Under the pieces are notes generated by a model that had not been told where the DNA came from, did not search any database, and worked only from the letters and a program-made list of their open reading frames with translations. From a virus, in the IMG/VR virus record IMGVR_UViG_3300042398_001156, positions 1-64,000 of that record: 64,000 bases of DNA; one strand, given 5' to 3'. Below, piece after piece: positions 6,462-64,000 of the stretch (position 1 is its first letter; each line of letters opens with the position of its first letter). The position numbers and the translations under genes are program-made.

Positions 6462-6477
6462 GGTAATAATACCAGCC

Positions 6478-8420: not shown

Positions 8421-8437
8421 AAATTCCTCACCTTTTT

Positions 8438-15350: not shown

Positions 15351-16680
15351 TATAACCCCATATTACTTGCACACTATAACTTGTAGTTGGATTGTTAGTA
15401 GAAACATTACCAGCATACCATGTAGGAGTAAACACGTTGTTTGCTGTACTACCTGCCCAACCTGCAGGCCTATTAACTTCTAAAACTCTTGTTTTAATAA
15501 CTAAACGTTTGCCTAGCACTACAGGAAATGCACCAGCTTCAATTGTTGTTACTGAGTCAGGTATAACAATTTCAAATAACGACGGTGTGTTTGCAAAAGC
15601 ATTAGCTCCTATAGTTGTTAAACCCTGGTTTAATAAAATTGTATGTCCTTTAAAACCATCAAAAGCATTTGCTTGAAGTTCTAAAATACTTTTAGGTAAA
15701 TAAATACCTTGTGTTAATAGATCAGGACTAGGTGCTGGTGGAGTGTTAATAAAATTAGTCTTGATTGTTTTAGCTTGAGTTCCACCAATATACTCCGGAA
15801 TAATTAAGTTAACAAGAACAAGACGTGCAGCTGTCGAAATAGTAACTAACCCTTGAACAGTAACTTCTAAAGTATTAATAAAGCTCCAAAAAGCATAGAA
15901 GTTAAGATCAGCACGCATCGGTACTTTTATTCCACCAGCTACTCCAAGTTGGTTAACTGTATAACCATTTGACGCAGTAACACCTGAAGCACGATGTTCT
16001 CTAGTCCAACCGTTAAAGGTATATATAAACTGTCCGTCTAAAGAAGCAAATACATTAAAACCTGCTGTTGGATATTTAATCGTAGCAATTTCATCATATA
16101 AATAAACTTTACTATCTATTGTAAAAGAATTACCTACGGGTATGTAAAGGTTGTTATTGTCAGGATAATAGTTAATTCTAAATCTAAATGTAGGAATATT
16201 TAAATTACGTTCATTATGTTGGATAATACCTTGTGCTGTATCTAAACCAAAAAACACACCTTGATCCGGATTTTGTCTGAATTCAACAGGAACACTATTA
16301 AATTCTTTTTGGAACATATCAAATAAACCTTCTTGCATCTCAAGTAAATACTTATTATAAATCGTAGTAAACTCTTCATCTCTTGCTAATATTTCCGAAG
16401 CAATGTATGGAATAATAACACTATGAAAGTATTCTTCTTTAATAATTTCGTACTCTGCAATCGTTTGGTCGACGCCATTTGCATCTTTTTCAGTTTGAGG
16501 AATACTATACGTATCTGTAGGATTTTTTAAATATAAAGTAAGTTTAGGATACCTGGTGCCTAAAAAACTATTAATCTTTGTAATAGCTTTGTCAGCATCG
16601 TACTTAACATCAAACCAAGTAAGGTTATACCTTAAGGTTAATTGGTTAAGACGGTCAAGCAGTTCTTGTTGTGTTAGCAT
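15343..16680 (-). CDS. Head-tail adaptor-like protein fused to InlB B-repeat-like and BspA-type LRR domains
   Basis: Helical N-terminal domain (DKAITKIN; EEYFHSVIIPYIASEIL); then Y.FNGW...DLNFYA.W; then LPKSI..L..NAF / L..GLTTIG.NAF / IPDSVTTI..GAF. Confidence 0.65.
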   Translation of the reverse strand: MLTQQELLDRLNQLTLRYNLTWFDVKYDADKAITKINSFLGTRYPKLTLYLKNPTDTYSIPQTEKDANGVDQTIAEYEIIKEEYFHSVIIPYIASEILARDEEFTTIYNKYLLEMQEGLFDMFQKEFNSVPVEFRQNPDQGVFFGLDTAQGIIQHNERNLNIPTFRFRINYYPDNNNLYIPVGNSFTIDSKVYLYDEIATIKYPTAGFNVFASLDGQFIYTFNGWTREHRASGVTASNGYTVNQLGVAGGIKVPMRADLNFYAFWSFINTLEVTVQGLVTISTAARLVLVNLIIPEYIGGTQAKTIKTNFINTPPAPSPDLLTQGIYLPKSILELQANAFDGFKGHTILLNQGLTTIGANAFANTPSLFEIVIPDSVTTIEAGAFPVVLGKRLVIKTRVLEVNRPAGWAGSTANNVFTPTWYAGNVSTNNPTTSYSVQVIWGYNG

Positions 16681-46874: not shown

Positions 46875-46985
46875 CTAACTAAACTTTTTATTGGGGTAGT
46901 CGGGTAAGACAATCTATAAACCTTATGGGCTAAAGATTGTAACGTGGGTTCAACTCCCACCTACTCCACCAAAAAGTTTAGTTAG
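46875..46985. repeat. 15-bp perfect inverted repeat enclosing the tRNA-like RNA
   Basis: CTAACTAAACTTTTT (46875-46889) / AAAAAGTTTAGTTAG (46971-46985). Confidence 0.85.
46893..46971 (+). ncRNA. tRNA-like RNA with alanine identity (G3:U70, A73, CCA), resembling a tmRNA tRNA-like domain without mRNA domain
   Basis: Acceptor GGGGTAG/CTACTCC-A-CCA; T arm GTGGG-TTCAACT-CCCAC; stemless D loop ending in GAC; ACAATCT/AGATTGT helix with an 18-nt non-anticodon loop. Confidence 0.7.
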
Positions 46986-47043: not shown

Positions 47044-47090
47044 AAATAATACCAAGCATATAAGCTGATTACTTATATGCTGGTTTATTT
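47044..47090. terminator. Probable bidirectional terminator between convergent arms
   Basis: ACCA(A)GCATATAAG-N7-CTTATATGCTGGT stem with A/T-rich flanks. Confidence 0.65.
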
Positions 47091-50000
47091 ATTTTAATAT
47101 CATAGCTTGTGATTGCCTGTATCGTACGTACTGTCTCCATTGAATGTTCTTAACTAAACGATATGGGTTAGTAGTAGGTCTACGCATACGTCCAAACTTA
47201 TTAAACCAATCTCTGTATATGTTTTCATATTTAGCCCAACGGCCATTACGTCCGTAACGATATCTACGCGGTGTATACTTTTCATAATTTTGAACAGTAT
47301 AAACTAAAGGTATTGTAGTTACAGGAGTATAAGGTTGTCTAGAAACAAATGGTTTAAGTTTAGATTGTTGTAAATTTTCTCTCATAGGTAATGCATTAAG
47401 TACTCTAGTTATTGGTCCTGCAATAGCAAGCTGTCTAATGCTTTGCATAACATCTCTTGTTTCTAAAAATTTAGCAATACCTTTTAATAAAGGCCTTTGT
47501 CTTCCCACTAAAGCTGCACTAGGATCACTTAAAATATTTTGAACATCATATAAACCTAATCCAATACGCAACCCAAAATTTTTACTAACACGTATCCAAC
47601 CACTTTGCATTTCTAATAATTCAAATTCACTATACTGTCCTTCTTCATCTGCGTATTGACCATAAACACCATCGATAACGTCGCTTAATAAAACAACAAT
47701 ACGTGGGTCCGTAATACGATCAATCCAGTTCTTAATAGAACGAACAGGGAATGATAAGTATGGAATGTCAGCAAGTAATTGCATTTCTAAAGGACTACGT
47801 AAGCCATAATTAAAGAAACGTTTAAGAGAATTATTAACAGATTCTTGGAAATTGTAACCACGTAACTGTCTATCAAGTAAGTAACCTGCAATACGACCTA
47901 CGTTTTCTGTATCAGTATTTAAGTCTTCATAAAAAAACTTATAACCAGCTTTTGTAATTCTTAATAATTTACCAAACAAAGTTTTATTAGAAGTACCAGT
48001 ACGCTGTTCTTCTATCTCGTTATACACTTCTTTAAATGATCGTGTAGAAAAATCATTAGCATCTAAAGCTACGCGTTGACTTACAAGATCTCTTAAGTAA
48101 GCAAAACTTTCTTGACGATACGTATCAATCTGTGCATTCGTTTGCATAAAGGCACTGATTTCAAATAAGATATTTTTTAAGTCATTATAATCAGCATTAT
48201 AAATAGGGTTACCATCTACATCTTTATACTTAGTATATTTTTTCAAACGTTTTTCAATACGTGCCCTATAAATATTACCTTTATCTTCTCCAAATTTTAA
48301 GTTGTCATATAAAGTAAAGTATTCTGCAAAGCGTATATCTAATAAAAAGTTAACAGAATCACGTATGCTTGTACGATTTAATATAGCTAACACACCATCT
48401 TTATTTTTTAATTGGTAAGTAGTATCATTTGATACTTTACTTAAATCTTCAATAGACTTAACACCAACAACGTCTTCTAATAAAAATTTTAATACACTGT
48501 CTAAATCTTTTTGGTATACTAAAGCATTATTTTCTAAACGATATTTAATTCTATTTTTTAACTCATCTTGTTTTAATGATTGAGCACCTTCAACGTAACC
48601 ATTAATTCTATATCTAATATTTAAAAAGTTTTGTATAACATCTAATACTTGTTCTTTAGTTATTGCAGTTTTATTTAATAGTAATTTATTTAATTTATCA
48701 TATGATGATTTTACTTCTAATAAAGTAAGAATACGTTCTTCAGATATATCTTGATACATATTATACACATCAAAAGTTAAACCCATAATACGTATAATTT
48801 CTTTATTGTTTTTTAATGTGCCATATATATCAAAGTCTTTATAAATTTCACTGTATAACTGTAACCAAGTATCTAACATGTTACGCATAATAAAACCATA
48901 ATTAAAACGCATTAATAACTTTTCAAGATATTGTAACTGTCCTAACCAAGTTGATAATGGACCTGTAAATTTAAATGGTTTATAAGCAGTTTCATAAGAA
49001 GACATTAAGTTATCAATAGTAACAAGACCTATGTTAAGTACTTCACCTTGCGCTAGTTTATCTTCAAGCAATTTTAAAAGTCCTTTTAATTCTTTCCAAT
49101 TTTTAATGTTTATTTCTTTTAATGTAGGTGATATATCAGATCCTAAATCAATACCATTTAAATCAACGGATGTATATTCTTTACCTTTAAATATAATTTT
49201 ATTAATAGGTGTTTCAAAAGTATAAGACTTTTTAATAGGAGCATTTAATTCTTTAACATAATCAATAATTTCTTGGAAAGATTTAAATTTAATATCTTTA
49301 GAATGTTTACGTCTTCCCAAAAACTTATCCCATCTTGATTTATTTTCCCAAGTAGGATCATCTTTAACAAATAAATCACCAACTTTTTTAGCGAGTCCTT
49401 CAGTATTATAAGCATCTTTTTGTACAACTAAACGAATAAAGTCTCTATTAGATACTAAGTATTCATAGAATTCTTTTACATCATATACACGTTTAGTTGT
49501 TTTATTACCATTGCCATCTAGTAAAACAATATCTTTTTTAAAAATAGAAGCAGCGCTAATTAAAGGATAGATAAGTTTATCCATATTCATTATGTTAGTA
49601 TTTTTAAAACGATTGATATCAGTACTAGTTAATGTAGGTGTGTCACCAAAATATCTTGGAACACCATCTTTAATCATTTCAATTGTTTCACCTTCAGGTG
49701 TGTGTAATAAAAAGATACCGCTTGTAAAATTACGAGCAAATGATTTGCTTAATGCACCCATTTGAATTTCTCGTTTCTTTTCTAATAATTCTTTTAAACG
49801 ATTCTTAAAATACTTTAACGAATCTTTTAAATCTAATTTTTCTATTTGCTCAATAGATAAAATAATATCTTCTTGTTCTTTTTTTGATGTAACAAGTTTA
49901 CCCGCAAGTTGTTTTAATTTGCTTTGGTTAATATACAATTCATCGTTGTTTTCTTTTAAAGATATTTGCGCTGTGCGTATTTCTCTTACTAAATTTTCAA

Positions 50001-53000
50001 TTTTATAAAATGCTAATTCGTTACTAACGAGTCTACTTATTTGGTCGTTAACACTTTCTTTAGAACGGTTGTTATAAGATTTTTCCTTTTCATTTTTTAA
50101 TGATTTAAATTCTTTAAATGAATCTGTTATTTGTTCTATTAATTCTTCAATAGTAATAGGATCTTTTAGTACATCTAAATTTTCATCTTTTAAAAACTGA
50201 CTAACAGATTCAGTTTCTAAATCAGAAGCTTTCGAAATACTTGCAAGTGCTTCATTGTAATCATTCCCATAAGGATTACTTAATTTACTTGCAATAATAT
50301 GTAAGTTATCTTTTGTTGCACGTGTGCTTGTACTATTCTTAACTGTATTAATACGTTGAGATGTTTGCCCTTCTTCTCCAATTGTAACGTACTCTACATC
50401 AACTTCTTTAGATCCTAAAAAGAAATCTTTAGCGTGTTGATATTTAGATGGTAATAACTCTCTTATGTATATACGTTGTTTATAACCCAAAGATTCTATA
50501 ATAGTTTTATAAAGAAAATAACTGTCAGCTAATAAACGAATTTCTTTCATATCTAATTTAGCATTACTATCTGAAGTAACTGCATATCTTGCTTCTATTT
50601 CTTTAAAGGTTCCGTAAGCCATATTAAAGATACGGAATAAACGGAAGCCAACAATACGTAAAGAAACTAATCTTCCTAAAAAATTATTAACTGAATCTTG
50701 TTGGCCATTAATTGTAATAGTTTTATCTAAAGCTTTTTCTAAATCTTTTTCTTGATTAAATATTTTTGAAACTTCAACAATTATATTTAAGTACTGATTA
50801 TAAACTGAGTCTGGTACGTAAATGTCACCGAACATTTCTTTTTTAGAGTATTCATTTATTAATAAATTTGCGGCGTTTAATGCGCTTGCTTCTGATCTAT
50901 AGCTACCTTGTAATTGTGTACTTTTAATTTCAATACGTTTTTCTTTTAAAGCTTTTAACTCTTTATCTTCTATTAATAATTCTTCCATTTCAAAAGTATC
51001 TTTATCCATACCAATAGCAATTGCATTATCGTGGTCATCATCAACACCAAGTGTAATGTCTCTTATACCTACTTTGTTAGCACTTGCTAATACACGGTTT
51101 TTAAACGCACGTAAATATTCACTTACAAGCATACGAATAGGTCCATGTTTAGCAATACCAATAATGTTATTAGCTTCTATAGATTGAGTACCTATAGTAC
51201 CACGATCAACAATAGATTGATTTAAATAATTAGAGGCGTGTCTTTGTATTACGTTTTCTAATTTTTCTTTAGTTTTCTTTTTAGCTTTAGGATTTATAGC
51301 TTTTTTAAATTCACGAATAGCATCTTCGTTTCTTGAAAAATAAAATACATATAAGTATTGTTCATCTACTTCGTCAAATTTATCTACAACAATACCGTTC
51401 TTTTGATAGCCTTTATACTTTTTAATAAACTCTAAATAGTGTGGGTTTAATGAAGTTGCATTTTTATAGAACGTATCAAAGTGTCTTACTACAGCATCAA
51501 CTTTATTAGGACCACTCATTACTTCCGCAAATGAAGTTAATTCTTTAACAACTAAAGCAGCAGCATATAATTTTTTATATAAGAAAACAAGTACATCTTC
51601 TGCATCTTGTTTAAAATAATCTTTATGTTTAACTGCATCTACTGCATCTATATAAATTTTTGTTTCTGGGTTATACGCAACTTCTTTAAACCAACCGTTG
51701 TAAACTTGATCAGTAAAATTAGGTAACATTTGTTTAGCAAAATTATTAGCGTCTTTGTTAATTTTTTCTTTAAGATCTTCAAAACTTAATCCTGCTTCTT
51801 GATCTTTTAAAGCAGTTGAATATATTGTGTTTCTAAATGTACCCAATACTTTTTCAAATGTTAACGTTAATGAATCTACAGAAACAATATTTCTTAAAGG
51901 ATCTTTAAAACTATTCCAAACATTACCTGTTTGATCTCTATTAATATTTGGGAATATGCTTAACGTAGATTTAGAAGTTTGAATTTTTCTTACACCACCG
52001 AATATAAGAATACCGACTTTAGATCCTTGGAAACGTGTAACCGTTTCATTACGTCCAACACTGTATAATTTTCTAAAGAATACTTTTTTTATTATTTCAG
52101 CGTTAGCTTTTTCTTTTCGGTTTCTAATAATTTCATCTACGCCCGTTTTAATAATATATTCTTTATCTTTAACTGATAAATGTTTTTCTAAAACTTCACC
52201 ATTAACAACATTAAAATCTTTACGGCTAACATATTGTGTTAAATCATATTTTTTAGCATCAATAATTTTTTGGAATAAATAAGAACGTGCAGCAATATTG
52301 AAATATCTTTTATCTTCTAATGCTTTTTTAACTGCAGCTGGATCTTTGTAGTCTTTTAATTCAAAGTCAGGCGCTGTGTTTAAGTTAAAAAGTTTTCTTA
52401 TTGCAACGTTTAAAAATTCTTTTTGTTCAGTTTCAGTCCAGTCTAAAGTTTCTGGTATAACAAGATTGTTAATATCTTTTTGAATACCTTCGTATAAAGA
52501 ACCATATAATTCTGACCATTTATATGTTGTTCGTATTTTTTCAAAAACGGATTTACCTACAGAAGTATATTCATAACCAATGTTTTGAATACGTTTATTG
52601 GTTTTAACATCAGGTATTAATTCTTTACGTATTTTTTCTAAGTAGCCTTCTACATATCTTCTTTCTTTTTTAATTGGGTCCCAAGTAAAGTACCCTTCAT
52701 CGTAATAAGATTCTTTAGTGGCATCATCTCGATCAAAACGTCCATCAATAAATTGTTGTTGGCTTAAAGCAATCATACCAATAGTATCACCATCGTTATC
52801 AGCACCCATCATTTTGTACATATATGGGTTAGCTTCAATAGCTGCGTGGTCGTGGTAACCTATAATTTTTAAAGTAGGTGTAGAGTTAGCATCTTGGATA
52901 GGCCACCGTGCTGTTAGTACCCAACCAAATTTACGCCCTAACTTATTCTTATAAAAGCTAATAGTATTGTTTTTATTAACAGTGTATAAAATATTTTCAA

Positions 53001-56000
53001 CACCGTTAATACTGTCATTAGTCATGCCTTGTTTATGTAAATGAATAATAAATGCTTCTAGTTCTTCTTTGTTTTTTAAACTTATTTCGTAATTTAATCC
53101 TGTATCTTTGACATTAATACCACTAAAATTTTGTTTCTTTGCAGTGTAATTAAAAGCGTTAATAAGTTTTAACCAGGTGGTTTCGTCAAGTTTTTCTAGT
53201 TGTAACCAGTCTTTCTTTTTACTTAAAGTTTCCCAAGAGTCTCTAGAAGTTCGTAAATTACCTAAACTTAAATCAATGTTGGCAAGTAATTGTTGTCTAA
53301 CACCAGGGTGTTTACGATATAAATATGTATAGATAGCACCTGAGTCAGATGTTAAAAATTCTTGAGCACGATTCCGTGAAGCTAAATTAATTTCTTTTAA
53401 TTTAATATCAAACCATGATTTATCTTTTGCGTTGCTTTCAAGACGCATGTTAAAGAACATCATGTACTCTTGTGCGTTATCAATTAAAGGTGTTTCTGAT
53501 CTTGCTTTAATATTATCTACGGTTTTTTTAATATCGTAATTGCCATTACTTAATTTAATAGCATAAGCTTCAAGGAACTTTTCAATGCCATAGCTTTGAA
53601 TTTCTGAGTAAATACTTATTTCTTTTCTAAAGTCTTGATCTAATAAAACTTTAAAGTCTACACCTTTCATACCTAAAATTGCAACAAAAGAAGGCGTTAC
53701 AGGTACACCGCCTTCAACGTTACCTTTTATATCACGATTAAATATTGCTAACTCAGGGTTACTGTTAAGCCTTGCGTTTACAGACATCTTTTCTGCGGTG
53801 TGATCAGCATCAGCAATCACATAGATTTCACCGCGTTGTATGTCTAAACCTTTAAAGTTATCAATTACAACATCACCTTTGTCTGTAACACGTTCTATAG
53901 TAATGTCTTCTGTAATAACATCATAAGTAAGATCACTAAATATTTTTACTTTATTGACAGAGTCTTCGCCAAATAAATCTAATAGAATATTATAATAATC
54001 TTCACCAGAATCAAGGATAATTTTTCCTTCTTTAATAACAAATAAATCTTTTAATTCTTTGTCTTTAGACGCAAGTATACGTAAGGCACGTTCAGTTAAA
54101 CCATATTTTTTAATAAACGCTTTATTTAAAATAGCAGATGTTTTATTAGGATTATCTAATAATTCTTTACCACGTTTTTGTAACTCAGAATTAACTAAAT
54201 ATTTTCTAATACTATTCATCGTTTGTTCTAGTACAGCACCCCCAGCACCACGTTGTTGTACCGAAGATTTATTAGCAATAATACTAACACCAAACTTTTC
54301 ACGTATCCCATCTTCAAAACGAATAGCACCTTTAAATCCCCACATGCCTAACCAAATTTTCCAGCCTTCATTAGCACCTAAAATTTTAGCTACTTTTCTA
54401 TCTATAATAAGTGCGTCTTCATAAGCCGCAGGCATATCCATAAAGCCTATTTCTAAATTCATACCTATCTTGTGAAATATGTTTCGTTTATAAAATTCAA
54501 ATTGTTTTTCTGTCAATTGATTAGGAGTAAACGTATTAATAAGTGTGCCATTTTCTGCTCTTCGTTCTAATAAATCAGTTAATAAATCACCCGTAGCAGG
54601 GTTATCTTTAATAGCTTGTTCAAAATATAATTCTAAAAGCTCTTCAAATTTTACAGATCTATTTAACTTGTCTTCAAAACTGTAGATGTTATTAATTAAA
54701 CCATACGGTGTATACTCTAAATATTGTTTATTGTAAGGTAAAATAATACGAGCAGGATTTGTGTTAAGTGTATGTGGCATATCTACGTTAGTAGGTAAAT
54801 ATATAGGTACAGATTTACCGGAACTTCCTTCTGCAGATTTTTCTAAATCAAGCAAGACTCCAATCTTGCTGGCACCCTCACTGGTCCAATCTATAACCAT
54901 GTTTGCACTATAAGTAGAAGGTACTAATAACAAGTATTTACTTGGGTCATTGCTTACAAATCTAGAAAGTGTACGATCTGCTAATCCTTGGTAAATTGTT
55001 TTAGTGTTATTTATTTTTTCTTTTTTACGTGCATAGTTATGAACATCTAAAAATCTAAAGAATCTATTTTTTAGTACTTGAGTCATGTTAATAACTTCTA
55101 AAACAGTATCAGGTATAGCATCATCAAAGACTTCGTCTTTTAAAAACTTTTCTGTAAGAACCTTACCACCTCTAACACCTTCATCATTTAATTCAAATAA
55201 GCCAAGCTTTCTGTATTTTTCATAATGTGATAACACACGTTTAATACTTTCAAAGCTGTGGTCTACACCATCTTCTAAATACACAATATTTTGTGGTAGT
55301 TTAGTATGACCAAGTTTTACTTGACCCTTAGCATCTTTGTAATTAAAGAAACGTTTTAACCAATCGTTAATATCTTCATCTTCTTTAGGTCCTTGTAGTT
55401 TAATTGTTTTAACTTCTAATGTTTTACCAGCTTCAATATAAGTGTAATTAAATTCAAAGGATACTTTACCACCTTTTAAACTAAACTTATAACTATTAAC
55501 AACGCCATTAAAATTATCAAATAAATTAACGATAAAAAAGTTTTCTGTAGGTCTTCTTATTAAAGCAACATCTTCTTTAATAACCAGTGCTTTACGATCT
55601 ACACCTTCATGTACATCTTTATACACACGGGTTACGTTAGGAATGTTTAATTGTTGAATAAACTCTAACCCTTCTTTTTGATTAGCTAAATTTTCTAATG
55701 AATCTAAACGTTCTTCTTTTGCTAGGTTTTCAATGTTTACTTTACCGCCATTTAAAATAGTATAAATGTGATCAAATTCCATTTCTTTTTTAATTGCATC
55801 AAGTTTCTTAACTCTGCTTAAAACTTCTACAAACTTATTAGTAACTGCTTCTGTGTTAACTTCTAAATCAGTTTGTTTTCTGTCAAATTTTAAACGGTTT
55901 AATAAATCAATATTGTTATTAACGTAATCTAATTCATCTTTAATAGCTAATGCAACAAGTGTACGCATGTTTAAAGTATCTATTTTTCCAACAAGATTAT

Positions 56001-59000
56001 CTTTTTCTTTTAATAAACTAAGTAATTTTGTCACACCTTTATTTTTACTAAACAATTCTACTAAGTTAGCAAATCGTTTGTCTTGAATAATATTTGTGTT
56101 TTCTTTTAATTTTAATATATTAAAAAATTTATTTAAGATATTAATTAAATCAGCATCATCAATTTTTAAATCAGGAATTTTTTTAAAGTCAGCACCTAGT
56201 ACTTCAGGTCCAATGTTATTCCAAGTCTCTACTAATTCTTGAAGCTTAACAATTGCTAAAGCTTTAAACTCTTCAGTCTTTTGATTTATTATATCTTCTA
56301 TTTTTTTATCAAACGTAGAACTTGCTGCAACTTTACCGTTGTTTAAAAGAGTAATCATAGTAGTAAGTTCTTGACTACGTTTATTATAAGCGTCTAATAT
56401 TTTATTTTTTTCTGCAGCATCCTTGATGCTTATAATAGTAGAATCAATAAATGTAGCTAAAAGTTTTTTAACTTCAGTAGATTCAATATCTATTTTTCCA
56501 TTAGGACTTTCTTCAATTATGCTCATTAACTTTTCTAAAGCTTGCACACTGTTGTTTAATTCTAATTGTAAGTTATCTAATTCTATTTTTAATAGACTAT
56601 AGTTTGTTATATTCGTAGAACTATAACCATATTTATCTTCATTAAGTTTTTCTTTTAGAACTTTATTAATTCTATACGTTGTATTTTTTGTAATCTCTTG
56701 TAACTTTTTAGAGGTTTTTCTAAGAATTTCAAAAAGAGTTTCTTTTTTAACAACACCATCTTCTACTTTCTTTGTTAAATCTTCAATTGTTTTTTCTACT
56801 TCTTTATATTCTTTTAATGTTTTTGCTTGGTCAGTAGCTAACTCTGTTAGTTTTTCTTTATGAGACTTTCTACCAGAAGTTTCAATAAAAGCAATAAATC
56901 TAAGTACTTGTTGTACTTGTAAATCAATTGAAGTATTTGCTTCGTTATAATTAAAGTCTGTTACTTGATCATCAGCGATGTTTAATTCTTCTTTAACAGC
57001 ATCTGTAATTAACTGTCTTACGCTTGTTAATTTAGGATCACCAGCAATACTATCTACACCTTGTTGTATCTGTGCAGTAAATTCTTCTTCCATTATTTTT
57101 AATAACTCATCTGTGTAAGCTAAAATTTTAGCATCTTCTCGTATGTTATGTCTTAACATCCAACCTTCATTAAAATATTTAAATATAGCATTTCTAATAT
57201 CTAAACGTTTAATAGGATCTTTTTCATTAATGTAGTCAAGTACTAAACTTTTTATAGTATTATATTGTGATTTTTCTCCTGTAAATAAACTTACTTTACG
57301 ACCTTGATTTGTTACTATACTTAAACGACTTTCAACATTTTTAATAACATCTTGTATTAAAATGTTTTCTATTTCACGATCAAACTTACCTATAGCTGTT
57401 AAGTCAGCTTTGTTTAAAGGTATACCTTTTTTTAATTTTTGATTAATTCTAGTTATTTCTTTTTTATTAGCAGCAATTAAACGTGCAGCATCTCCACGTG
57501 TAACAGCGTCGTTAACACTAGCGTACTCCATGCGTTCTCTTATAGCTTTAGGATCGTTATCTCTTATTAATTGGTAATATAAGTTTACTTTTAAAGTACT
57601 AGCAAGACGTTGAATAAATTGATTGTAGTTAGGAAAGTCAAAATCTTCACCGTTATGTGCAATAATAGGTACATTTTTAGGCGCTGCGTTTACTTCGTTT
57701 ATAAAAAGACGGGTAACTTCTATGTCATTACGCTGACCTATTACATACTTAATAGTAGTATCTATACGTTTATCTAATTCATCTTTTATTGTTTTATTTA
57801 AAAGATTATAGTACTCATCTTGATCTGTATTTCTCCAAACTTTTTTAGTTTTAGTTGGGTCAGCATTAACCCAAGCTTTAAAGCCTTCCATTTCTTTTAC
57901 ATACATACGTCTTTGTTGTTCATAAAACCGTGTTAATTCAGGAGACAATTTAGTTTCTACTTTACCGTTTACAAGTTCTTCTGTTTTACCTTCAATAAAT
58001 ATTTGATTTGTCATAAATTGATTTAACACATCAAAAGATAATTTACCTTTAACGTTTTTAAATTTTAATATAGTTAATTGATATGGAATTTTATTACCGT
58101 TACTATCTGTTACAGTTTCCATGTCTAAAATAATAAACTCTTCAGGTAAGTTTTGACCTGCTTTTTTCATCTGGGCCATATAATTAAAAGCAGTAATAAC
58201 ACCATCTGTTATACCATTATGTAGCCCTATATTTTTTTCACCGTCAGTATTAGTATCTTTAATTAGTTGTACTAATTTATCATAACCACCTATGTAATAT
58301 TGACCGGCATCTTTAATAATTTTTTCAATAACCTCAACACTAGTCTGTTCAACATTAATTTTATTTAAGTTTCTATACGTATCTAAATTACTATTACCAT
58401 AAGGCTTTTCTTCTTTTCTAGCACTTATAAGGTTATCATAACGATTCTGTATACCCTTCTTATCGCTTTCAGCTTTTTCTAATAACTCATTTAATTTAGC
58501 AATACGTGCAGGTACTTCTGTAGAGTAATCTTTTAATGCTTCTTTTTCTTTTTTTAAAGCAACAATTTTATCTGTTAGTTCTTTTCTTTGCGCAATTAAA
58601 TCATCGTGTTCTTTTTTATATAAAGTAGTATCATTTGATAATATGTAAGACGCAAGATACTCATCTGATATTTCTTTATTTGTTTCAGCACTTACTTTTT
58701 TTGCAACACGTTTTAACACAGTAGTAGGATCTTGATTACCTTCTGTTTTTAAAACATTAATGACATTATTACTATTTTTAATATTAACTTTATTTTTTGT
58801 TATACGACTTTTTAATTCTATTAACGCTTTTATAGTCTGTTCTAAATCATAATTCTTTTGATTAGTAATTAAATTATTTATAGTTATTTCAAATTCACCT
58901 TTAAGTTCTTTTAATTGGTCTTTACTATATTTATCTTTAGTAGTTTCTACAACAGTAGATTTATTAATTGCGTCTTCTACTTTTTTAAGTTCATCTAATA

Positions 59001-62000
59001 TATATTCTTTTTGTTTAAATGAATTAATATCCATGTTGTCAAAAGGATATGATTTTAATTCTAATAATCTTTCTAATACTAATAAAACTTCTCTTGGTAT
59101 TTCTATAGTTGTAACGTTACTTCCTGTACCAACAACTTCAAAACCTTCTTGTATAGAAGGTTGAGCTACGCCTCTGTTTGCTTTTTTTCTTTTTTCTAAT
59201 TCTTTTTCGTCCGATTTAAAATCAGATTGTTTTACAAAATAAAGTTTTTCTGAGCTAACATAAGTTATTGGTATTTGTAAAGATGTTGACCAGCTACCAG
59301 TTGGTTCATCTCCACCACGTACATATAATCTTTCTGTACTACTATTAACTATGTTTTTTATTTTTGTTATAAACGTATTTAATTGATTTCTTACATAAGG
59401 ATTTTCAATTAAAAATTTAAGTATATCATCGTTTAATAAATTTCTTTTTTTCCAATCAATCTTACTGTATTCTTCTTCTTCTTTATTTAATGCTTCTCTA
59501 AACTTATCAAATAGTGGATGACTTTTTCCAAAGGCATCAAACTCTGCTTGGGTTTTGTCAGTGTTTGGTATTTCACGGCCACTATCTACCCAGTCTTTTT
59601 TTATTTGTTGATAAAAACTTTCTCTTAAATCTGAAGCTTCTTCTAATTTTTCAAACATTAAAACAATTTCTTTTTCGTAAGAAGTTATTTTACTTTCTAT
59701 TTCTTTTAAACCTTCTTCTTTTCCAAGTTTTTCTTTAACTTGTAAAACATTTAAGCTACTTTTTATTTTAAAAGAACTTAAATAATTGCTGTCTTCTTTA
59801 TTAATAGTAGCAATTAATTGTTTAGTTAGCGTTAATAATCCTTGAAGTGTAAATTTCTTTAAGTAAATAAGTTTGTTTAATTCTGTTTTGTAACGTTCTT
59901 TTGTTATATCTTTTTTATTAATTCCTAACTTATGTAAATCATAATTAATTTTAAGTTGCGCGTATGTTGCCCACAAAAATTTACGATATGAAAGCTCATT
60001 AGCTCTATCATGTTTTTTAAATGTAAATGTTTCTTTTTTATTTTTAACATCTTGTATAGCTTTATCAATAACAGTTTCATAATTATCAAAATCTTCCAGT
60101 CCAAAAGTATTAAAGTATTCATCTTGTGCTTGTGCTAAATAATTTTCTGCTTTATTTAAGTATTCACTTTGTGATTTTAAAAGAATATCCGTACTTTTTT
60201 TATCTAGTGTAAGTGAATCTTTTAAATCTTTTTGTTCTTTTGCAGCAATTTCTTTAGCAGCACCTTTAAAACTTCCATAGTAAGCTCTTTGAATTTTATT
60301 AACATGATATCTAGCGATAGCTAACTGTCTTCCTTTACGACTTAAACCATCTTCTGTATCACTAATAATTTTATCACCGTCTGTAAAATATTTATTAATG
60401 TTATCAATTCTATTTTCATTATTTTTAATAATGGATTCATAACCTTTTCTATAAGTACCCCAGGTCTTTTTTGAAACTTTAGAATCTTTTGGATCAACTC
60501 CATTAATTAAAGTTTTTTGAAGTGTATTAATTGTATTAATTTTATCTTCTGCATTTTTAATAAAGTTATTATAATCTTCGACTGTTTGTATATTAATACC
60601 TAATTCAATTAATGATTTAACATTATTTTCAAAAGTATCTTTTTTATATGTATTTCTAATTTTTGCAAATGCTTTATATTCTTTTGTAGATAACCACGTT
60701 TTTGCTTCAATTAAATCATCTCTTATTTTATCGTACAGTTCAAAAAACTTAACAGACTTTTTATTTTTAAATTTGTTTATTTTATCTTGGTTTTCTTTTT
60801 GAGCCTTTGTTAATAATTTTTCATTGAACTCTTCGTATTCTTTAATAAGCGAAGGTGTATTTTCATACACAGCAATTAAAATTTTTTCTTTTCTGTCTTT
60901 TGCTTCTTTATCAATAGTAGTTATTTCATTATTTAAAATAACTTGAGATGATTCTAAAATGTTTATTTGTGTTAATAATTCTAATTCTTTTTTATTTATA
61001 GCAGCAAGATCTGTATTACTAAAATTAAACATAGATTTTAAACTATCTAATCTATTTGTTAATGTTACAGCTTCTTCTTTTAATTTATTGACAGTATTAG
61101 TAATTAATTCCCAGCTTACAATTGTAGGTAATTTTTTAAAATCATAATCTTTATCTCCAGCTACACCTTCTTCTATAGTATCCCATAACAGTCTTTCCCC
61201 TTTATCAAGATTTAATTGACTGCTTAAAATTTTTGTAAGGTCATTAATATTTTGAATACGTTTAGTTACTTCACTTCTTTCCTTAGGAGTCATTGCTTCT
61301 AAAACAGCTTTAGGAAAAATAATATTAATAGCTTTTCTAATTGATCCTGCTGTTTCAATTTGATTAGCAAGGCTAGTTAACTTTGAAATATTATAACGTT
61401 GCTGTGCGTCTGATATAGTTTTTATTTGATCTTCAAGATAACGCAATCTAGTTTGTGCTTGTGCTTTTGTTTTATTGTCAAACTTATTGATAAGAATATA
61501 ACCCATAACTGCTTGTACAAACTCTGGGGTTACATCAAGTAAATGACGACGAGAATTAAAATAATTAACTATGTCTTCTACTTGTTGGTTTATACGTTTT
61601 AATTGTTCTGGATCATTTATAGAATCAACATATTTTTTAAAATCATTTTTATAAATAGTAATAAATTCTTTACGTTGAGATATATTATTAATAGCAATAG
61701 CTATTTCTAAAAAACGAACAAAGTTAATATCTTCTACTTCTGGTTTAATTAACTTTAATAGATTTGTATATCGTTGCATTAATGCCGTGTAATCAATATT
61801 TCTAGAAGGAACTTCATCAATATTTTTAGCGTACTGTTCACTTGTGTAATGAAAACTAATATCTCCTAAAGCTTGTTCAATTATTTTAGCAACAGTTGCA
61901 TTATAGTTTGGATTTGAATTAGGTATAAATATAACTTTAAAAGTATCACGCATTTGTTGTAATATAATTTTGCTAATATTATTAGGTGTAGTTAAAATAT

Positions 62001-64000
62001 ATTTACGTTCAGGTGTAACATTTGTATCAGGCACATCTTCATTTTTTAAAACAATAGTATCTAATCTATTGTTTATATCTTCTACATATGTACCTGCGTT
62101 AATTAAATAACTGACAGAATTATAAATATCTCTTAAGATACTATTTTCAAATACATCTTTTTTTGGATTTGTTTCAAACGTTCCCGTAGCTTCTAAAGCT
62201 TTAACACGTTTAATGTTTTTACGTATTTCTTTATCTCTAAATCTATCAACAGCGTCACTCCAAGACCATTTAGCGCCTTCAAATTTTTGATTAATATAAA
62301 TAGATTTAATCATATTTAATAATGAAACAAAGACAAAAGCATTATCATTAGAACTAAATTTATTTATTAGTACTATCATTAAGTCATCAACAGTTTTGTA
62401 CACTTCAAATAATCTTACAATTTCTTCATAGTCAGTAAATCCTATTTCAGCAAAAAATTGTCTAATTTTATTAACGCGTGTTATTTCATCGTGTTCAATT
62501 TCTTTACCATAAGCATGTGTGTATCCTAATATAAATTTTTTAAAATATGACATAAAATCTTTACTATCATTTAGTAAAGGTATTTTCATTAAACTATATA
62601 ACTCGTAAGGACTTTCAAATTTATCTTCTGATTTTTTACTTCTAAAGCTAGCCATTACTTTATAAACATTATCATCAATAGGAAGATTTAAATCACCTGT
62701 AATAGTTCTAAATTTCTCAACTTCTATATTATAACTTTTTAGGTACTCTTCAAAAATTTCAACGGTAGTAACTTGATTTTTTCTTTCACGATAAAAAATT
62801 AAATTAATAAACATTTCAGTTATATTACGTATTTGTGGGTCTTGAATATTATCTAAGTATTCATTAACGCTTGCATATTTTACTTGAGGTATAGTGGTGT
62901 TTTGGTCTATTACAGCTACTTTATTAGTAGCACCAAACATCGTATCTTCTAATTTATCTATGATACTTTCGATTGTTTTATTAATATCTAAATTATTAAA
63001 AGATAATCCTGGAACAAGTGCAATTAACTGCACTATAATTTCAGACATACTTGTAACTATTTTTCCGCCTTCTGCGTTAGGGTCGTCTAATGTGTATGTT
63101 CTAAATTCTTCTTTAGGTTTTTTATACCAAGCTGCCACATCTTCTTTATTTTTTTTAATTAAATCAGCTAGTATTGAATTGATAGTATCTTTAGTATTGG
63201 GGTCTGCTGCTAAAGCTTTTTCATACAACATAAAAGCTTCACCACCTAAACGAACAGTAGGGGTTTTTCTTGCGTTTGTACTAATCTTTGTTAAGTAAGT
63301 ACTTATAGTTTGCTTCAATAACATTTCTTGTAAACGTAATACTTCATCCTTATTTATACTATCTAAGTTATTATTAAGTTTTAAATCAATAAACATCTTT
63401 CCAAAGTTATATAACTTTTCATAAGAAGAAGATATATTTTGAAATTCATCTTCAGGCAAAGCTTTAATACCCGCTACAAATTGTTCTAAAGTAATGCCTG
63501 GTTGACCTAGATACGTGGCAAATGATCCGGCTACGGATATTAATAGTCTTTTAATATCTAAAAAGTCTTCATCTTTTAATGTATTAAAAACTGTATCTTG
63601 ATCAATATTAAAAAACGATAAAGCGTTTATTAAATCTTCGTTTTTAAAATCTCCGTATTCAAAAATATTTTTATTATTCTTAATAACATAAAGTAAGTTA
63701 GACCAGTTTAAATTAATAGAAGTGCCTTTAATTCTTGCGTTACTTTCTTTAACTTTTTCTTTATAAAATTTACGTGTTTTTCTAACGCTTCTAGCTATTT
63801 GTGTTTCTAAAGTAACACCATCGGTTTGTTTAAGATTAAACATTTCTTTTAATCTTTGTATACCATAAAGTCTTTCTTCTACACGGTTAACAGTATTAAA
63901 CATTGTTAGATTTTCATTATACTTATTATTATCATTAATAAAGTTTGTATTAGCTTCTCTTAAAATTTTTATTCTAGCCGATATTTCTTGTGCTGTAATA
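47089..64000 (-). CDS. Giant polyvalent virion protein containing a single-chain two-barrel (multisubunit-type) DNA-dependent RNA polymerase and DEDD exonuclease-like motifs; 5' end beyond window
   Basis: beta-like G.N...M....YEDA, GWK...GFKG, N..S...R...G..LE, G..Y.....H..EKM; beta'-like RWP and GADNDGD; frame has no stop from 63903 to 64000. Confidence 0.85.
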   Translation of the reverse strand, partial: ITAQEISARIKILREANTNFINDNNKYNENLTMFNTVNRVEERLYGIQRLKEMFNLKQTDGVTLETQIARSVRKTRKFYKEKVKESNARIKGTSINLNWSNLLYVIKNNKNIFEYGDFKNEDLINALSFFNIDQDTVFNTLKDEDFLDIKRLLISVAGSFATYLGQPGITLEQFVAGIKALPEDEFQNISSSYEKLYNFGKMFIDLKLNNNLDSINKDEVLRLQEMLLKQTISTYLTKISTNARKTPTVRLGGEAFMLYEKALAADPNTKDTINSILADLIKKNKEDVAAWYKKPKEEFRTYTLDDPNAEGGKIVTSMSEIIVQLIALVPGLSFNNLDINKTIESIIDKLEDTMFGATNKVAVIDQNTTIPQVKYASVNEYLDNIQDPQIRNITEMFINLIFYRERKNQVTTVEIFEEYLKSYNIEVEKFRTITGDLNLPIDDNVYKVMASFRSKKSEDKFESPYELYSLMKIPLLNDSKDFMSYFKKFILGYTHAYGKEIEHDEITRVNKIRQFFAEIGFTDYEEIVRLFEVYKTVDDLMIVLINKFSSNDNAFVFVSLLNMIKSIYINQKFEGAKWSWSDAVDRFRDKEIRKNIKRVKALEATGTFETNPKKDVFENSILRDIYNSVSYLINAGTYVEDINNRLDTIVLKNEDVPDTNVTPERKYILTTPNNISKIILQQMRDTFKVIFIPNSNPNYNATVAKIIEQALGDISFHYTSEQYAKNIDEVPSRNIDYTALMQRYTNLLKLIKPEVEDINFVRFLEIAIAINNISQRKEFITIYKNDFKKYVDSINDPEQLKRINQQVEDIVNYFNSRRHLLDVTPEFVQAVMGYILINKFDNKTKAQAQTRLRYLEDQIKTISDAQQRYNISKLTSLANQIETAGSIRKAINIIFPKAVLEAMTPKERSEVTKRIQNINDLTKILSSQLNLDKGERLLWDTIEEGVAGDKDYDFKKLPTIVSWELITNTVNKLKEEAVTLTNRLDSLKSMFNFSNTDLAAINKKELELLTQINILESSQVILNNEITTIDKEAKDRKEKILIAVYENTPSLIKEYEEFNEKLLTKAQKENQDKINKFKNKKSVKFFELYDKIRDDLIEAKTWLSTKEYKAFAKIRNTYKKDTFENNVKSLIELGINIQTVEDYNNFIKNAEDKINTINTLQKTLINGVDPKDSKVSKKTWGTYRKGYESIIKNNENRIDNINKYFTDGDKIISDTEDGLSRKGRQLAIARYHVNKIQRAYYGSFKGAAKEIAAKEQKDLKDSLTLDKKSTDILLKSQSEYLNKAENYLAQAQDEYFNTFGLEDFDNYETVIDKAIQDVKNKKETFTFKKHDRANELSYRKFLWATYAQLKINYDLHKLGINKKDITKERYKTELNKLIYLKKFTLQGLLTLTKQLIATINKEDSNYLSSFKIKSSLNVLQVKEKLGKEEGLKEIESKITSYEKEIVLMFEKLEEASDLRESFYQQIKKDWVDSGREIPNTDKTQAEFDAFGKSHPLFDKFREALNKEEEEYSKIDWKKRNLLNDDILKFLIENPYVRNQLNTFITKIKNIVNSSTERLYVRGGDEPTGSWSTSLQIPITYVSSEKLYFVKQSDFKSDEKELEKRKKANRGVAQPSIQEGFEVVGTGSNVTTIEIPREVLLVLERLLELKSYPFDNMDINSFKQKEYILDELKKVEDAINKSTVVETTKDKYSKDQLKELKGEFEITINNLITNQKNYDLEQTIKALIELKSRITKNKVNIKNSNNVINVLKTEGNQDPTTVLKRVAKKVSAETNKEISDEYLASYILSNDTTLYKKEHDDLIAQRKELTDKIVALKKEKEALKDYSTEVPARIAKLNELLEKAESDKKGIQNRYDNLISARKEEKPYGNSNLDTYRNLNKINVEQTSVEVIEKIIKDAGQYYIGGYDKLVQLIKDTNTDGEKNIGLHNGITDGVITAFNYMAQMKKAGQNLPEEFIILDMETVTDSNGNKIPYQLTILKFKNVKGKLSFDVLNQFMTNQIFIEGKTEELVNGKVETKLSPELTRFYEQQRRMYVKEMEGFKAWVNADPTKTKKVWRNTDQDEYYNLLNKTIKDELDKRIDTTIKYVIGQRNDIEVTRLFINEVNAAPKNVPIIAHNGEDFDFPNYNQFIQRLASTLKVNLYYQLIRDNDPKAIRERMEYASVNDAVTRGDAARLIAANKKEITRINQKLKKGIPLNKADLTAIGKFDREIENILIQDVIKNVESRLSIVTNQGRKVSLFTGEKSQYNTIKSLVLDYINEKDPIKRLDIRNAIFKYFNEGWMLRHNIREDAKILAYTDELLKIMEEEFTAQIQQGVDSIAGDPKLTSVRQLITDAVKEELNIADDQVTDFNYNEANTSIDLQVQQVLRFIAFIETSGRKSHKEKLTELATDQAKTLKEYKEVEKTIEDLTKKVEDGVVKKETLFEILRKTSKKLQEITKNTTYRINKVLKEKLNEDKYGYSSTNITNYSLLKIELDNLQLELNNSVQALEKLMSIIEESPNGKIDIESTEVKKLLATFIDSTIISIKDAAEKNKILDAYNKRSQELTTMITLLNNGKVAASSTFDKKIEDIINQKTEEFKALAIVKLQELVETWNNIGPEVLGADFKKIPDLKIDDADLINILNKFFNILKLKENTNIIQDKRFANLVELFSKNKGVTKLLSLLKEKDNLVGKIDTLNMRTLVALAIKDELDYVNNNIDLLNRLKFDRKQTDLEVNTEAVTNKFVEVLSRVKKLDAIKKEMEFDHIYTILNGGKVNIENLAKEERLDSLENLANQKEGLEFIQQLNIPNVTRVYKDVHEGVDRKALVIKEDVALIRRPTENFFIVNLFDNFNGVVNSYKFSLKGGKVSFEFNYTYIEAGKTLEVKTIKLQGPKEDEDINDWLKRFFNYKDAKGQVKLGHTKLPQNIVYLEDGVDHSFESIKRVLSHYEKYRKLGLFELNDEGVRGGKVLTEKFLKDEVFDDAIPDTVLEVINMTQVLKNRFFRFLDVHNYARKKEKINNTKTIYQGLADRTLSRFVSNDPSKYLLLVPSTYSANMVIDWTSEGASKIGVLLDLEKSAEGSSGKSVPIYLPTNVDMPHTLNTNPARIILPYNKQYLEYTPYGLINNIYSFEDKLNRSVKFEELLELYFEQAIKDNPATGDLLTDLLERRAENGTLINTFTPNQLTEKQFEFYKRNIFHKIGMNLEIGFMDMPAAYEDALIIDRKVAKILGANEGWKIWLGMWGFKGAIRFEDGIREKFGVSIIANKSSVQQRGAGGAVLEQTMNSIRKYLVNSELQKRGKELLDNPNKTSAILNKAFIKKYGLTERALRILASKDKELKDLFVIKEGKIILDSGEDYYNILLDLFGEDSVNKVKIFSDLTYDVITEDITIERVTDKGDVVIDNFKGLDIQRGEIYVIADADHTAEKMSVNARLNSNPELAIFNRDIKGNVEGGVPVTPSFVAILGMKGVDFKVLLDQDFRKEISIYSEIQSYGIEKFLEAYAIKLSNGNYDIKKTVDNIKARSETPLIDNAQEYMMFFNMRLESNAKDKSWFDIKLKEINLASRNRAQEFLTSDSGAIYTYLYRKHPGVRQQLLANIDLSLGNLRTSRDSWETLSKKKDWLQLEKLDETTWLKLINAFNYTAKKQNFSGINVKDTGLNYEISLKNKEELEAFIIHLHKQGMTNDSINGVENILYTVNKNNTISFYKNKLGRKFGWVLTARWPIQDANSTPTLKIIGYHDHAAIEANPYMYKMMGADNDGDTIGMIALSQQQFIDGRFDRDDATKESYYDEGYFTWDPIKKERRYVEGYLEKIRKELIPDVKTNKRIQNIGYEYTSVGKSVFEKIRTTYKWSELYGSLYEGIQKDINNLVIPETLDWTETEQKEFLNVAIRKLFNLNTAPDFELKDYKDPAAVKKALEDKRYFNIAARSYLFQKIIDAKKYDLTQYVSRKDFNVVNGEVLEKHLSVKDKEYIIKTGVDEIIRNRKEKANAEIIKKVFFRKLYSVGRNETVTRFQGSKVGILIFGGVRKIQTSKSTLSIFPNINRDQTGNVWNSFKDPLRNIVSVDSLTLTFEKVLGTFRNTIYSTALKDQEAGLSFEDLKEKINKDANNFAKQMLPNFTDQVYNGWFKEVAYNPETKIYIDAVDAVKHKDYFKQDAEDVLVFLYKKLYAAALVVKELTSFAEVMSGPNKVDAVVRHFDTFYKNATSLNPHYLEFIKKYKGYQKNGIVVDKFDEVDEQYLYVFYFSRNEDAIREFKKAINPKAKKKTKEKLENVIQRHASNYLNQSIVDRGTIGTQSIEANNIIGIAKHGPIRMLVSEYLRAFKNRVLASANKVGIRDITLGVDDDHDNAIAIGMDKDTFEMEELLIEDKELKALKEKRIEIKSTQLQGSYRSEASALNAANLLINEYSKKEMFGDIYVPDSVYNQYLNIIVEVSKIFNQEKDLEKALDKTITINGQQDSVNNFLGRLVSLRIVGFRLFRIFNMAYGTFKEIEARYAVTSDSNAKLDMKEIRLLADSYFLYKTIIESLGYKQRIYIRELLPSKYQHAKDFFLGSKEVDVEYVTIGEEGQTSQRINTVKNSTSTRATKDNLHIIASKLSNPYGNDYNEALASISKASDLETESVSQFLKDENLDVLKDPITIEELIEQITDSFKEFKSLKNEKEKSYNNRSKESVNDQISRLVSNELAFYKIENLVREIRTAQISLKENNDELYINQSKLKQLAGKLVTSKKEQEDIILSIEQIEKLDLKDSLKYFKNRLKELLEKKREIQMGALSKSFARNFTSGIFLLHTPEGETIEMIKDGVPRYFGDTPTLTSTDINRFKNTNIMNMDKLIYPLISAASIFKKDIVLLDGNGNKTTKRVYDVKEFYEYLVSNRDFIRLVVQKDAYNTEGLAKKVGDLFVKDDPTWENKSRWDKFLGRRKHSKDIKFKSFQEIIDYVKELNAPIKKSYTFETPINKIIFKGKEYTSVDLNGIDLGSDISPTLKEINIKNWKELKGLLKLLEDKLAQGEVLNIGLVTIDNLMSSYETAYKPFKFTGPLSTWLGQLQYLEKLLMRFNYGFIMRNMLDTWLQLYSEIYKDFDIYGTLKNNKEIIRIMGLTFDVYNMYQDISEERILTLLEVKSSYDKLNKLLLNKTAITKEQVLDVIQNFLNIRYRINGYVEGAQSLKQDELKNRIKYRLENNALVYQKDLDSVLKFLLEDVVGVKSIEDLSKVSNDTTYQLKNKDGVLAILNRTSIRDSVNFLLDIRFAEYFTLYDNLKFGEDKGNIYRARIEKRLKKYTKYKDVDGNPIYNADYNDLKNILFEISAFMQTNAQIDTYRQESFAYLRDLVSQRVALDANDFSTRSFKEVYNEIEEQRTGTSNKTLFGKLLRITKAGYKFFYEDLNTDTENVGRIAGYLLDRQLRGYNFQESVNNSLKRFFNYGLRSPLEMQLLADIPYLSFPVRSIKNWIDRITDPRIVVLLSDVIDGVYGQYADEEGQYSEFELLEMQSGWIRVSKNFGLRIGLGLYDVQNILSDPSAALVGRQRPLLKGIAKFLETRDVMQSIRQLAIAGPITRVLNALPMRENLQQSKLKPFVSRQPYTPVTTIPLVYTVQNYEKYTPRRYRYGRNGRWAKYENIYRDWFNKFGRMRRPTTNPYRLVKNIQWRQYVRYRQSQAMILK

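Follow-up and report, generated by a model that had tools for sequence, protein, structure and literature searches.

An 8,437-residue protein of a podovirus-like lake phage contains a predicted single-chain, two-barrel RNA polymerase

The DNA analysed here is a stretch of 64,000 nucleotides (the window), bases 1–64000 of the linear, 75,916-bp IMG/VR virus record IMGVR_UViG_3300042398_001156, for which CheckV estimates a completeness of 71%. Translation of the window shows a giant open reading frame (ORF) on the minus strand, with its stop codon at 47089–47091 and the frame still open at the window end; the portion inside the window is thus 47089–64000 (−), and it can be aligned collinearly with 15 full-length relatives, which have 7,377–7,964 residues (aa). 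In the whole record the ORF occupies 47089–72402 (−), starts with an ATG at 72402 and encodes 8,437 aa, of which residues 1–2,801 are encoded past the window end (record 64001–72402). A first-pass annotation, made from the letters of the window, had put the protein at about 5,600 aa, and this figure has to be replaced. The predicted mass is approximately 0.95 MDa, and the 25,314 nt of the gene amount to 33% of the record. The subject of this report is a module in the C-proximal part of the protein that is predicted to be a two-barrel RNA polymerase (RNAP). As modelled with AlphaFold2 (AF2) and matched with the structure searches Foldseek and VIA, the module covers r55–1200 (51100–54537, protein residues ~5956–7101), and it probably extends further toward the C-terminus than r1200. 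Here r denotes the residue number in the translation of window 51100–54699 (−), and the residue number in the whole protein is r + 5901. All features of the giant protein described below lie on the minus strand.

The minus-strand translation contains, in the order proposed by the first-pass annotation, all the motifs that it had quoted as evidence of an RNAP active site. The sequence GMNLEIGF...AAYED ends in the pair E94–D95 (54415–54420), and is followed by GWKIWLGMWGFKG, which carries K114 (54358–54360) and K123 (54331–54333), and by IIANKSSVQQRG, which carries R150 (54250–54252). A GEIYVIADADH motif stands between IIANKSSVQQRG and VLTARWP, the latter with R598-W-P600 at 52900–52908. The metal-binding DxDxD motif, DNDGD (r634–638), is found at exactly the position first given for it, 52786–52800, and reads (G/A)DNDGD in 16 of the 16 full-length proteins aligned. 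Upstream of VLTARWP lies VRQQLLAN (r467–474, 53278–53301), and downstream of DNDGD the model has a long helix of 46 residues, assigned with DSSP (r864–909, 51973–52110), with GGVRK at r901–905. The last element is AKHG (r1183–1186, 51142–51153) within IIGIAKHG (r1179–1186), a candidate trigger-loop motif.

These motifs were compared with the products of the E. coli rpoB and rpoC genes, taken from a RefSeq record. E813/D814 of β correspond to E94/D95, K1065 to K114, K1073 to K123, and R1106 of the PSRM motif to R150. In β′, RFRQNLLGKR at 337 corresponds to VRQQLLAN at r467, NRAPTLH at 424 to ARWP (R598–P600), NADFDGD at 458 to GADNDGD, and GARKG of the bridge helix at 778 to GGVRK at r901. The assignment of VRQQLLAN is inferred from the order of the motifs and from a strand of the model at r466–473. 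Motif order and most spacings agree with those of the E. coli subunits: 36 residues separate RxP from the first Asp here, against 35 in β′, and the two lysines are spaced as K-x8-K, against K-x7-K in β. The distance from the ED pair to the first Lys, by contrast, is 19 residues here and 251 in E. coli β (E813 to K1065), in agreement with the earlier remark that the long insertion between the ED and GDK motifs of bacterial RpoB is missing.

The giant protein belongs to a small family of metagenomic proteins of 7.4–8.1 thousand residues. An exhaustive HMMER (phmmer) search with the 1,200-aa region as query, run on 1.84 billion cluster representatives, returned 26 proteins only, eleven of them giants of 7,377–7,828 aa and the remainder fragments; no known polymerase was among these 26 matches, and a word-indexed search gave the same picture. 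Three IMG/VR relatives (G001, G002 and G003; 75.8–81.8 kb) contain open frames of 8,056, 7,606 and 8,058 aa, respectively, and seven further metagenome loci were added to the family. Sixteen full-length proteins can be aligned collinearly over their entire length, and the best-conserved stretches among them are residues 1–100, 400–700, 4700–5000, 5800–6600 and 7800–8437. An unrelated record of 41 kb (G004) that matched a DNA pattern for PVQDYNAV gave no protein match and was rejected.

Conservation within the polymerase region was scored in a 21-member family alignment, whose sequences are 23–51% identical to the query. K114, G121, K123, G124, S146 and R150 are invariant. Conserved in at least 90% of the sequences are E94, D95, W116, G290, Y293 and D297 on the β-like side, R468, Q470, R598, P600, Q602 and D634-N-D-G-D638 on the β′-like side, and R889, K894, G896, G901, R904, K905 and K1184 downstream, all but the last of these downstream residues falling within the long helix r864–909. 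The ratio of non-synonymous to synonymous substitution rates (dN/dS) of the polymerase region is 0.13 when measured against an 85%-identical relative; the giant ORF is a genuine gene, on which purifying selection acts strongly.

Sequence searches yielded no match to an RNAP. The window part, divided into four chunks of 1,500 aa, gave nothing above threshold in Pfam and PHROGs, and neither did the 2,801 N-terminal residues in Pfam. The polymerase region matched no Pfam family at E ≤ 1, RNA_pol_Rpb1 and RNA_pol_Rpb2 included. Searches of the PDB sequences, with the region in phmmer and with a four-sequence profile in hmmsearch, found no RNAP and only chance rows; when hhalign compared the profile with the single sequences of E. 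coli RpoB and RpoC, the probability remained below 1%; and tblastn of the region against 50,697 GenBank phage records gave no match.

The AF2 model of the region, built on the 21-sequence alignment, has a mean pLDDT (predicted local distance difference test) of 83.1 and a pTM (predicted template modelling score) of 0.79. A Foldseek search against the PDB gave 89 matches at E ≤ 1e-3. Each of the best 50 is the largest subunit of a multisubunit RNAP (Rpb1/A190/A′), and 6hko_A ranks first (E 4.8e-6, probability 1.00). In BFVD, a viral library, the model matched large RNAP subunits of giant viruses and, weakly, gp66 of phage phi14:2, which is annotated there as 'structural protein' (E 3.6e-3, probability 0.33).

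The structure search VIA, which is independent of Foldseek and covered 48,161 chains, assigned the two halves of the module to different subunits. Residues r55–357 (53629–54537), which include ED, K114, K123 and R150, superimpose on the double-psi β-barrel (DPBB) part of second-largest subunits with Z 10.6–12.9: RPB2 of African swine fever virus (8q3b_B; Z 12.9, root mean square deviation (rmsd) 3.1, 209 aa), the non-virion RNAP (nvRNAP) of phage AR9 (7s00_C; Z 12.1, 23% identity), A135 of RNA polymerase I (4c2m_B; Z 11.8), the nvRNAP of phage phiKZ (7ogp_C; Z 11.5) and bacterial β (6j9e_C; Z 10.6). This part is designated the β-like barrel, DPBB-B. Residues r374–1200 matched largest subunits of the β′/Rpb1 type with Z 10.7–12.7, among them human A190 (7ob9_A; Z 12.7), Rpb1 (Z 12.2), Sulfolobus A′ (2pmz_A; Z 12.2, r374–912 on 213–828), vaccinia Rpo147 (Z 11.9) and Mycobacterium tuberculosis β′ (Z 10.7). 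Within it, r374–912 (51964–53580) is matched as a clamp-like connector, the second barrel (DPBB-A, with DNDGD) and the predicted bridge helix. The segment r465–666 matched generic DPBB domains (VAT-N and Cdc48-N), and β′/Rpb1 at Z 12–13. Two single-chain polymerases superimpose over both barrels at once, gp96 of phage P23-45 (8h2n_A; Z 9.5, rmsd 4.3, 259 aa) and QDE-1 (7y7p_A; Z 9.2, rmsd 6.2 Å, 353 aa), and these rigid-body alignments cover r57–1200. Lower matches include DP2 of the DNA polymerase PolD (Z 7.9), generic DPBB domains and plant RDR2 (Z 6.2). In a second VIA look, 694 of 986 chains reached a Z of at least 8, and the best 50 were all of the β′/Rpb1 type; E. coli β′ (6alg_J; Z 12.6) was aligned with r380–1182 on its residues 38–932.

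The region is therefore predicted to be a two-barrel RNAP in one chain, and the confidence of this prediction is good; the β-like barrel comes first and the β′-like barrel with DNDGD second. The first-pass proposal of an RpoB-type barrel followed by an RpoC-type barrel is supported by the model, by the Foldseek and VIA matches and by the conservation of the catalytic signatures. The superpositions of gp96 and QDE-1 across both barrels suggest indirectly that the barrels may be arranged as in an active polymerase, with DNDGD beside the ED pair and both lysines. Because the alignments to A′ and A190 end at r911–912, where the bridge helices of these subunits end, the helix r864–909 is predicted to be the bridge helix. 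E. coli β′ is aligned up to its residue 932 at r1182, which would place IIGIAKHG, with K1184, where the β′ trigger loop begins. The polymerase is likely to be catalytically active. The β-like barrel would supply the ED loop and the two lysines, the β′-like barrel the three DNDGD aspartates that hold Mg2+, and the bridge helix and then probably the trigger loop would follow.

Single-chain two-barrel RNAPs are already known as parts of very large phage proteins that are probably injected, and the module described here has distinct similarities to, and differences from, each of the known systems. Both halves find their best structural matches (Z 10.6–13.2) in the β/β′ (Rpb2/Rpb1) core, including AR9 (7S00) and phiKZ (7OGP), with which they share the series ED, the Lys pair, the R of PSRM, RxRQxLL, RxP, DxDGD and G-RK of the predicted bridge helix. 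Here, however, the halves are fused in one chain of 8,437 aa without detected sequence similarity, flap/wall, cysteines and Zn sites are absent, and no α or ω partners were found. P23-45 gp96 (PDB 8H2M/8H2N; PMC10770324) is a virion two-barrel RNAP fused to a tape measure protein of 5,002 aa. It resembles the present protein in being a single-chain polymerase of the B-then-A order within a giant virion protein thought to enter with the DNA, a virion status that for our protein is inferred. The gp96 polymerase is N-terminal in the tail tape measure protein of a siphovirus, whereas the one described here is internal and C-proximal, its gene follows the capsid gene, and its phage is podovirus-like; there is no sequence similarity between the two.

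[quoted passage not shown] Its catalytic motif is DFDID instead of DNDGD, and the giant protein is about four times longer. Structurally gp66 is closest to QDE-1, whereas the polymerase described here scores higher with cellular-type subunits; 6VR4 was absent among the VIA matches listed. The two proteins also have no sequence link, as the exhaustive phmmer search returned the giant family only and the tblastn search of phage records was empty, and the head genes of the present phage are not crAss-like. The SPbeta YonO and QDE-1 type shares the single chain, the two barrels and a DxDGD-type motif, but is non-virion and much smaller, and QDE-1 matches with a higher rmsd and a lower Z than the cellular-type subunits. 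No YonO structure was among the structural matches listed.

The gene order is one argument for a virion role of the giant protein. The gene of the major capsid protein (662 aa; record 72884–74872, −) lies directly upstream on the same strand, with a 113-aa ORF and a terminator-like hairpin in between, and the giant gene is the last of its operon and convergent with the replication genes. The order of capsid gene and giant gene on one strand is the same in four genomes, those of the query and of G001–G003, among which the capsid proteins are 64–72% identical and the polymerase regions only 26–50%. A polymerase that is made late would be useful mainly if it were kept for the next infection. The composition of the protein is also distinctive. 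It contains no cysteine in 8,437 residues, and 15 relatives of 7.4–8.0 thousand residues contain 0–5. The structural ORFs of the phage have 7 cysteines in 6,409 residues, against 27 in 3,715 for the replication ORFs and the large terminase subunit (TerL); in its cysteine depletion the giant protein resembles the former and not the latter. Three conserved Gly/Ala-rich hydrophobic segments of transmembrane-like character (residues 389–495), preceded by an Ala/Lys/Thr-rich helical stretch, resemble membrane-inserting segments of ejection and tape-measure proteins.

Virion RNAPs have precedents in N4 gp50, phi14:2 gp66 and P23-45 gp96 (PMC10770324; bioRxiv 10.1101/2020.03.07.982082; PMC13434306), of which gp66 and gp96 are two-barrel enzymes inside very large proteins (PMC10770324; bioRxiv 10.1101/2020.03.07.982082). 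By gene order, composition and analogy with these systems, the giant protein is probably packaged in the virion and ejected. The explanation that we favour, with some reserve, is that of a late-made protein of ~0.95 MDa with a single-chain two-barrel RNAP, packaged in the phage head and ejected for early transcription. The protein would be produced along with the capsid protein and enclosed in the head of the podovirus-like lake phage, from which it would be ejected into the host together with the DNA. Residues ~5956–7101 would act as a DNA-dependent RNAP that, once inside the cell, transcribes the early genes without the host polymerase, in the manner of gp50, gp66 and gp96. Membrane insertion and passage would be the task of the N-terminal Gly/Ala-rich hairpins and of the long helical stretches, and a DEDD-like segment upstream of the polymerase might have an accessory role.

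Several observations weigh against this explanation. Every sequence method tried (Pfam, PHROGs, phmmer, hmmsearch, hhalign) was negative for a link to RNAPs, and the case for the fold consequently rests on one predicted model from 21 sequences. The region lacks the flap/wall insertion of β, no recognisable β lobes or protrusion were found upstream of the polymerase, and cysteines that could bind Zn are absent. The start codon of the giant ORF is not preceded by an obvious Shine-Dalgarno sequence. A cargo of ~1 MDa is very large even beside the 3,500-aa enzyme of N4. Finally, since the record is estimated to be only 71% complete, another polymerase could lie on the missing DNA.

Three other explanations were considered. 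An active two-barrel RNAP could be a non-virion enzyme that stays in the cell, perhaps in a large transcription and replication scaffold, and serves middle or late genes. Single-chain two-barrel RNAPs of the non-virion kind do exist, such as P23-45 gp64 and YonO (PMC10770324), and the DEDD-like segment and the helical regions could serve intracellular nucleic-acid work. A polymerase that is co-transcribed after the capsid gene would, however, be made when it can no longer drive the phage programme, except if it were kept for the next infection, and in its extreme size, its hydrophobic hairpins near the N-terminus and its depletion in cysteine the giant protein fits with the structural proteins of this phage. 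To our knowledge, all giant phage RNAP proteins tested so far are virion proteins, and we regard a purely intracellular enzyme as unlikely. The protein could also enter the cell as a tail-associated, tape-measure-type protein with a fused RNAP, as in P23-45 gp96, and not as head-internal cargo. The gp96 match over both barrels (Z 9.5), the hydrophobic segments and long helices of the giant protein, and a weak TMP_N row in Pfam (E 0.013, below the cut-off) are in line with such a role. Yet the polymerase is located at ~5956–7101 of 8,437 residues and not at the N-terminus as in gp96, the operon-final gene after the capsid gene has no tail-tube or chaperone genes adjoining, and podophages have the nearest counterparts of TerL and the capsid protein. 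At the ~0.15 nm per residue of tape-measure proteins, moreover, 8,437 residues would correspond to a tail of more than 1 micrometre, and a tape-measure role seems quite improbable.

The fold alone fixes neither the template nor the product of the module. QDE-1 (Z 9.2), plant RDR2 (Z 6.2) and PolD DP2 (Z 7.9) were also matched, and the two barrels could belong to an RNA-dependent RNA polymerase, a primase-like enzyme, a PolD-like DNA polymerase or an inactive relic. The top-scoring chains for both halves are nevertheless subunits of DNA-dependent RNAPs (Z 12–13), and the phage already encodes PolA, a primase and a helicase. An inactive relic is disfavoured by the strict conservation of the catalytic residues and the dN/dS of 0.13. 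Any of these other activities would be very unlikely. In the Foldseek and VIA comparisons, the predicted fold of the region is of the DPBB type and not T7-like as in the virion RNAP of N4. PF00940, the T7-like RNA_pol family, had no match in the record, but the control genomes gave none either. A sigma70_r2 search found no sigma factor in the record, which counts in favour of virion delivery, and a search for repeated promoter-like motifs for a phage polymerase returned only AT-rich chance matches and tail-fibre repeats.

The virion-delivered two-barrel RNAPs known from crAss-like phages and P23-45 bear on the escape of viruses from host dependence and on early RNAP evolution. The present case would be new in three respects: its family is invisible to sequence libraries and occurs in a phage with head genes like those of Bacillota podophages; its core is stripped down (no flap, Zn sites or cysteine) and looks structurally closer to cellular β/β′ than to the QDE-1/gp66 type; and the polymerase is internal in a chain of 8.4 thousand residues, to which a podovirus-like lake phage outside the crAss group devotes a third of its genome. 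If active, it would offer a compact, self-contained polymerase core of the cellular type, suited to structural and mechanistic study, and the protein would be a test case for the packaging and ejection of a ~1-MDa polypeptide. A broader reading, to which we assign a low probability, is that a single molecule of ~1 MDa replaces the whole set of internal core and ejection proteins together with the virion polymerase. In such a molecule the N-terminal hairpins may insert in the membrane and the helical regions span the envelope, transcription may help to pull in the genome, and the DEDD-type nuclease may work together with the polymerase; the core may be a cellular-type β/β′ fusion independent of the crAss/YonO/QDE-1 lineage. 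If true, this would mean that the cellular RNAP core was captured and miniaturised independently, and that no other known phage commits so large a share of its genome, about one third, to one protein.

Outside the polymerase, the giant protein contains a DEDD/DnaQ-like, exonuclease-type segment about 1,100 aa upstream (57613–58185), recognised by the conservation of its motifs; positions in this segment are prefixed s. The ExoI motif DMET (s60–63, 58114–58125) has D60, E62 and T63 invariant in 16 sequences, and the ExoII motif HNGxxFD (s216–222, 57637–57657) has H216, G218, F221 and D222 invariant in the same set. No conserved ExoIII motif (H-x4-D or Y-x3-D) follows ExoII in the 16-sequence alignment, and Pfam gave no match. 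A second AF2 model, of the exonuclease-like segment and the region upstream of the polymerase, has a pLDDT of 65, with values of ~75–85 over the exonuclease-like segment. Foldseek returned no match to this model at E ≤ 1e-3, with weak rows for DnaQ, RNase T and 3′hExo (E 0.3–0.65), and helical bundles filled the VIA list. Because the model is low-scoring and its matches are weak or helical, neither an exonuclease fold nor β-lobe-like domains are established.

With the polymerase and the DEDD-like segment, the giant protein holds at least two enzyme-like modules in one chain. Phage polyvalent proteins combine several effector domains per packaged polypeptide, with LPD or MuF-type domains as their signature (Iyer et al. 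2017, PMC5512222). No part of the giant protein is better conserved than its C-terminal 640 residues. A feature search of the ESM Atlas with the C-terminal 737 aa pointed to LPD38 (score 0.94, 152 shared features), for which Pfam gave no confirmation in three family members, and otherwise matched only viral hypothetical clusters; the N-terminal 671 aa gave scores of 0.84 or lower.

The DNA of the giant gene differs in composition from the rest of the window: its GC content is 26–30% (window 48000–64000) versus 32–40% in window 1–47000, and the negative GC skew is stronger than in the remaining phage DNA. Between the small post-capsid ORF and the giant ORF (record 72402–72452) lies a terminator-like hairpin of 10 bp with a T-run, followed by TGTTATAAT, an extended −10-like sequence only ~11 nt 5′ of the giant-ORF ATG. 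Given this proximity and the lack of an obvious Shine-Dalgarno sequence, the mRNA of the giant gene may have a very short leader.

The record is that of a tailed phage, with genes for TerL, a portal/adaptor, a long tail fibre, PolA, a helicase, a primase and a Sak4-like protein. TerL is nearest to that of the Paenibacillus larvae podophages API480/SV21 (31% identity, E 1e-66), as is the capsid protein (~31% identity), and no crAss record was among the top TerL and capsid matches listed. The head genes thus support a podovirus-like phage, and they agree with the first-pass annotation in that the phage is not crAss-like. API480, the nearest cultured relative by head genes, lacks a giant gene, and its largest gene product has 1,631 aa. 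A comparison of the capsid protein with species genomes found no relative and hence no clue to the host. The query record and G001–G003 are all 75.8–81.8 kb long, yet CheckV rates them as 71–82% complete; given their similar sizes, the four records may be almost complete genomes, from a lineage poorly represented in the completeness references.

Near-identical DNA occurs in freshwater and lake-water metagenome runs of 2016 and 2023–2024 from many studies, no RNA run being among the sequencing runs listed; the phage therefore persists in lake communities. ARAGORN found neither tRNA nor tmRNA in window 1–64000, and did not support a 'miniature tmRNA' candidate at window 46875–46985. The 1,823-aa tail fibre gene (window 990–6461) contains several internal direct repeats of 57–88 nt with 60–81% identity, which points to a repeated-domain architecture. 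Also in the tail region, a 445-aa ORF (window 15343–16680) has a BspA-type leucine-rich repeat (Pfam LRR_5, E 2.3e-9), and its product is possibly a receptor-binding protein.

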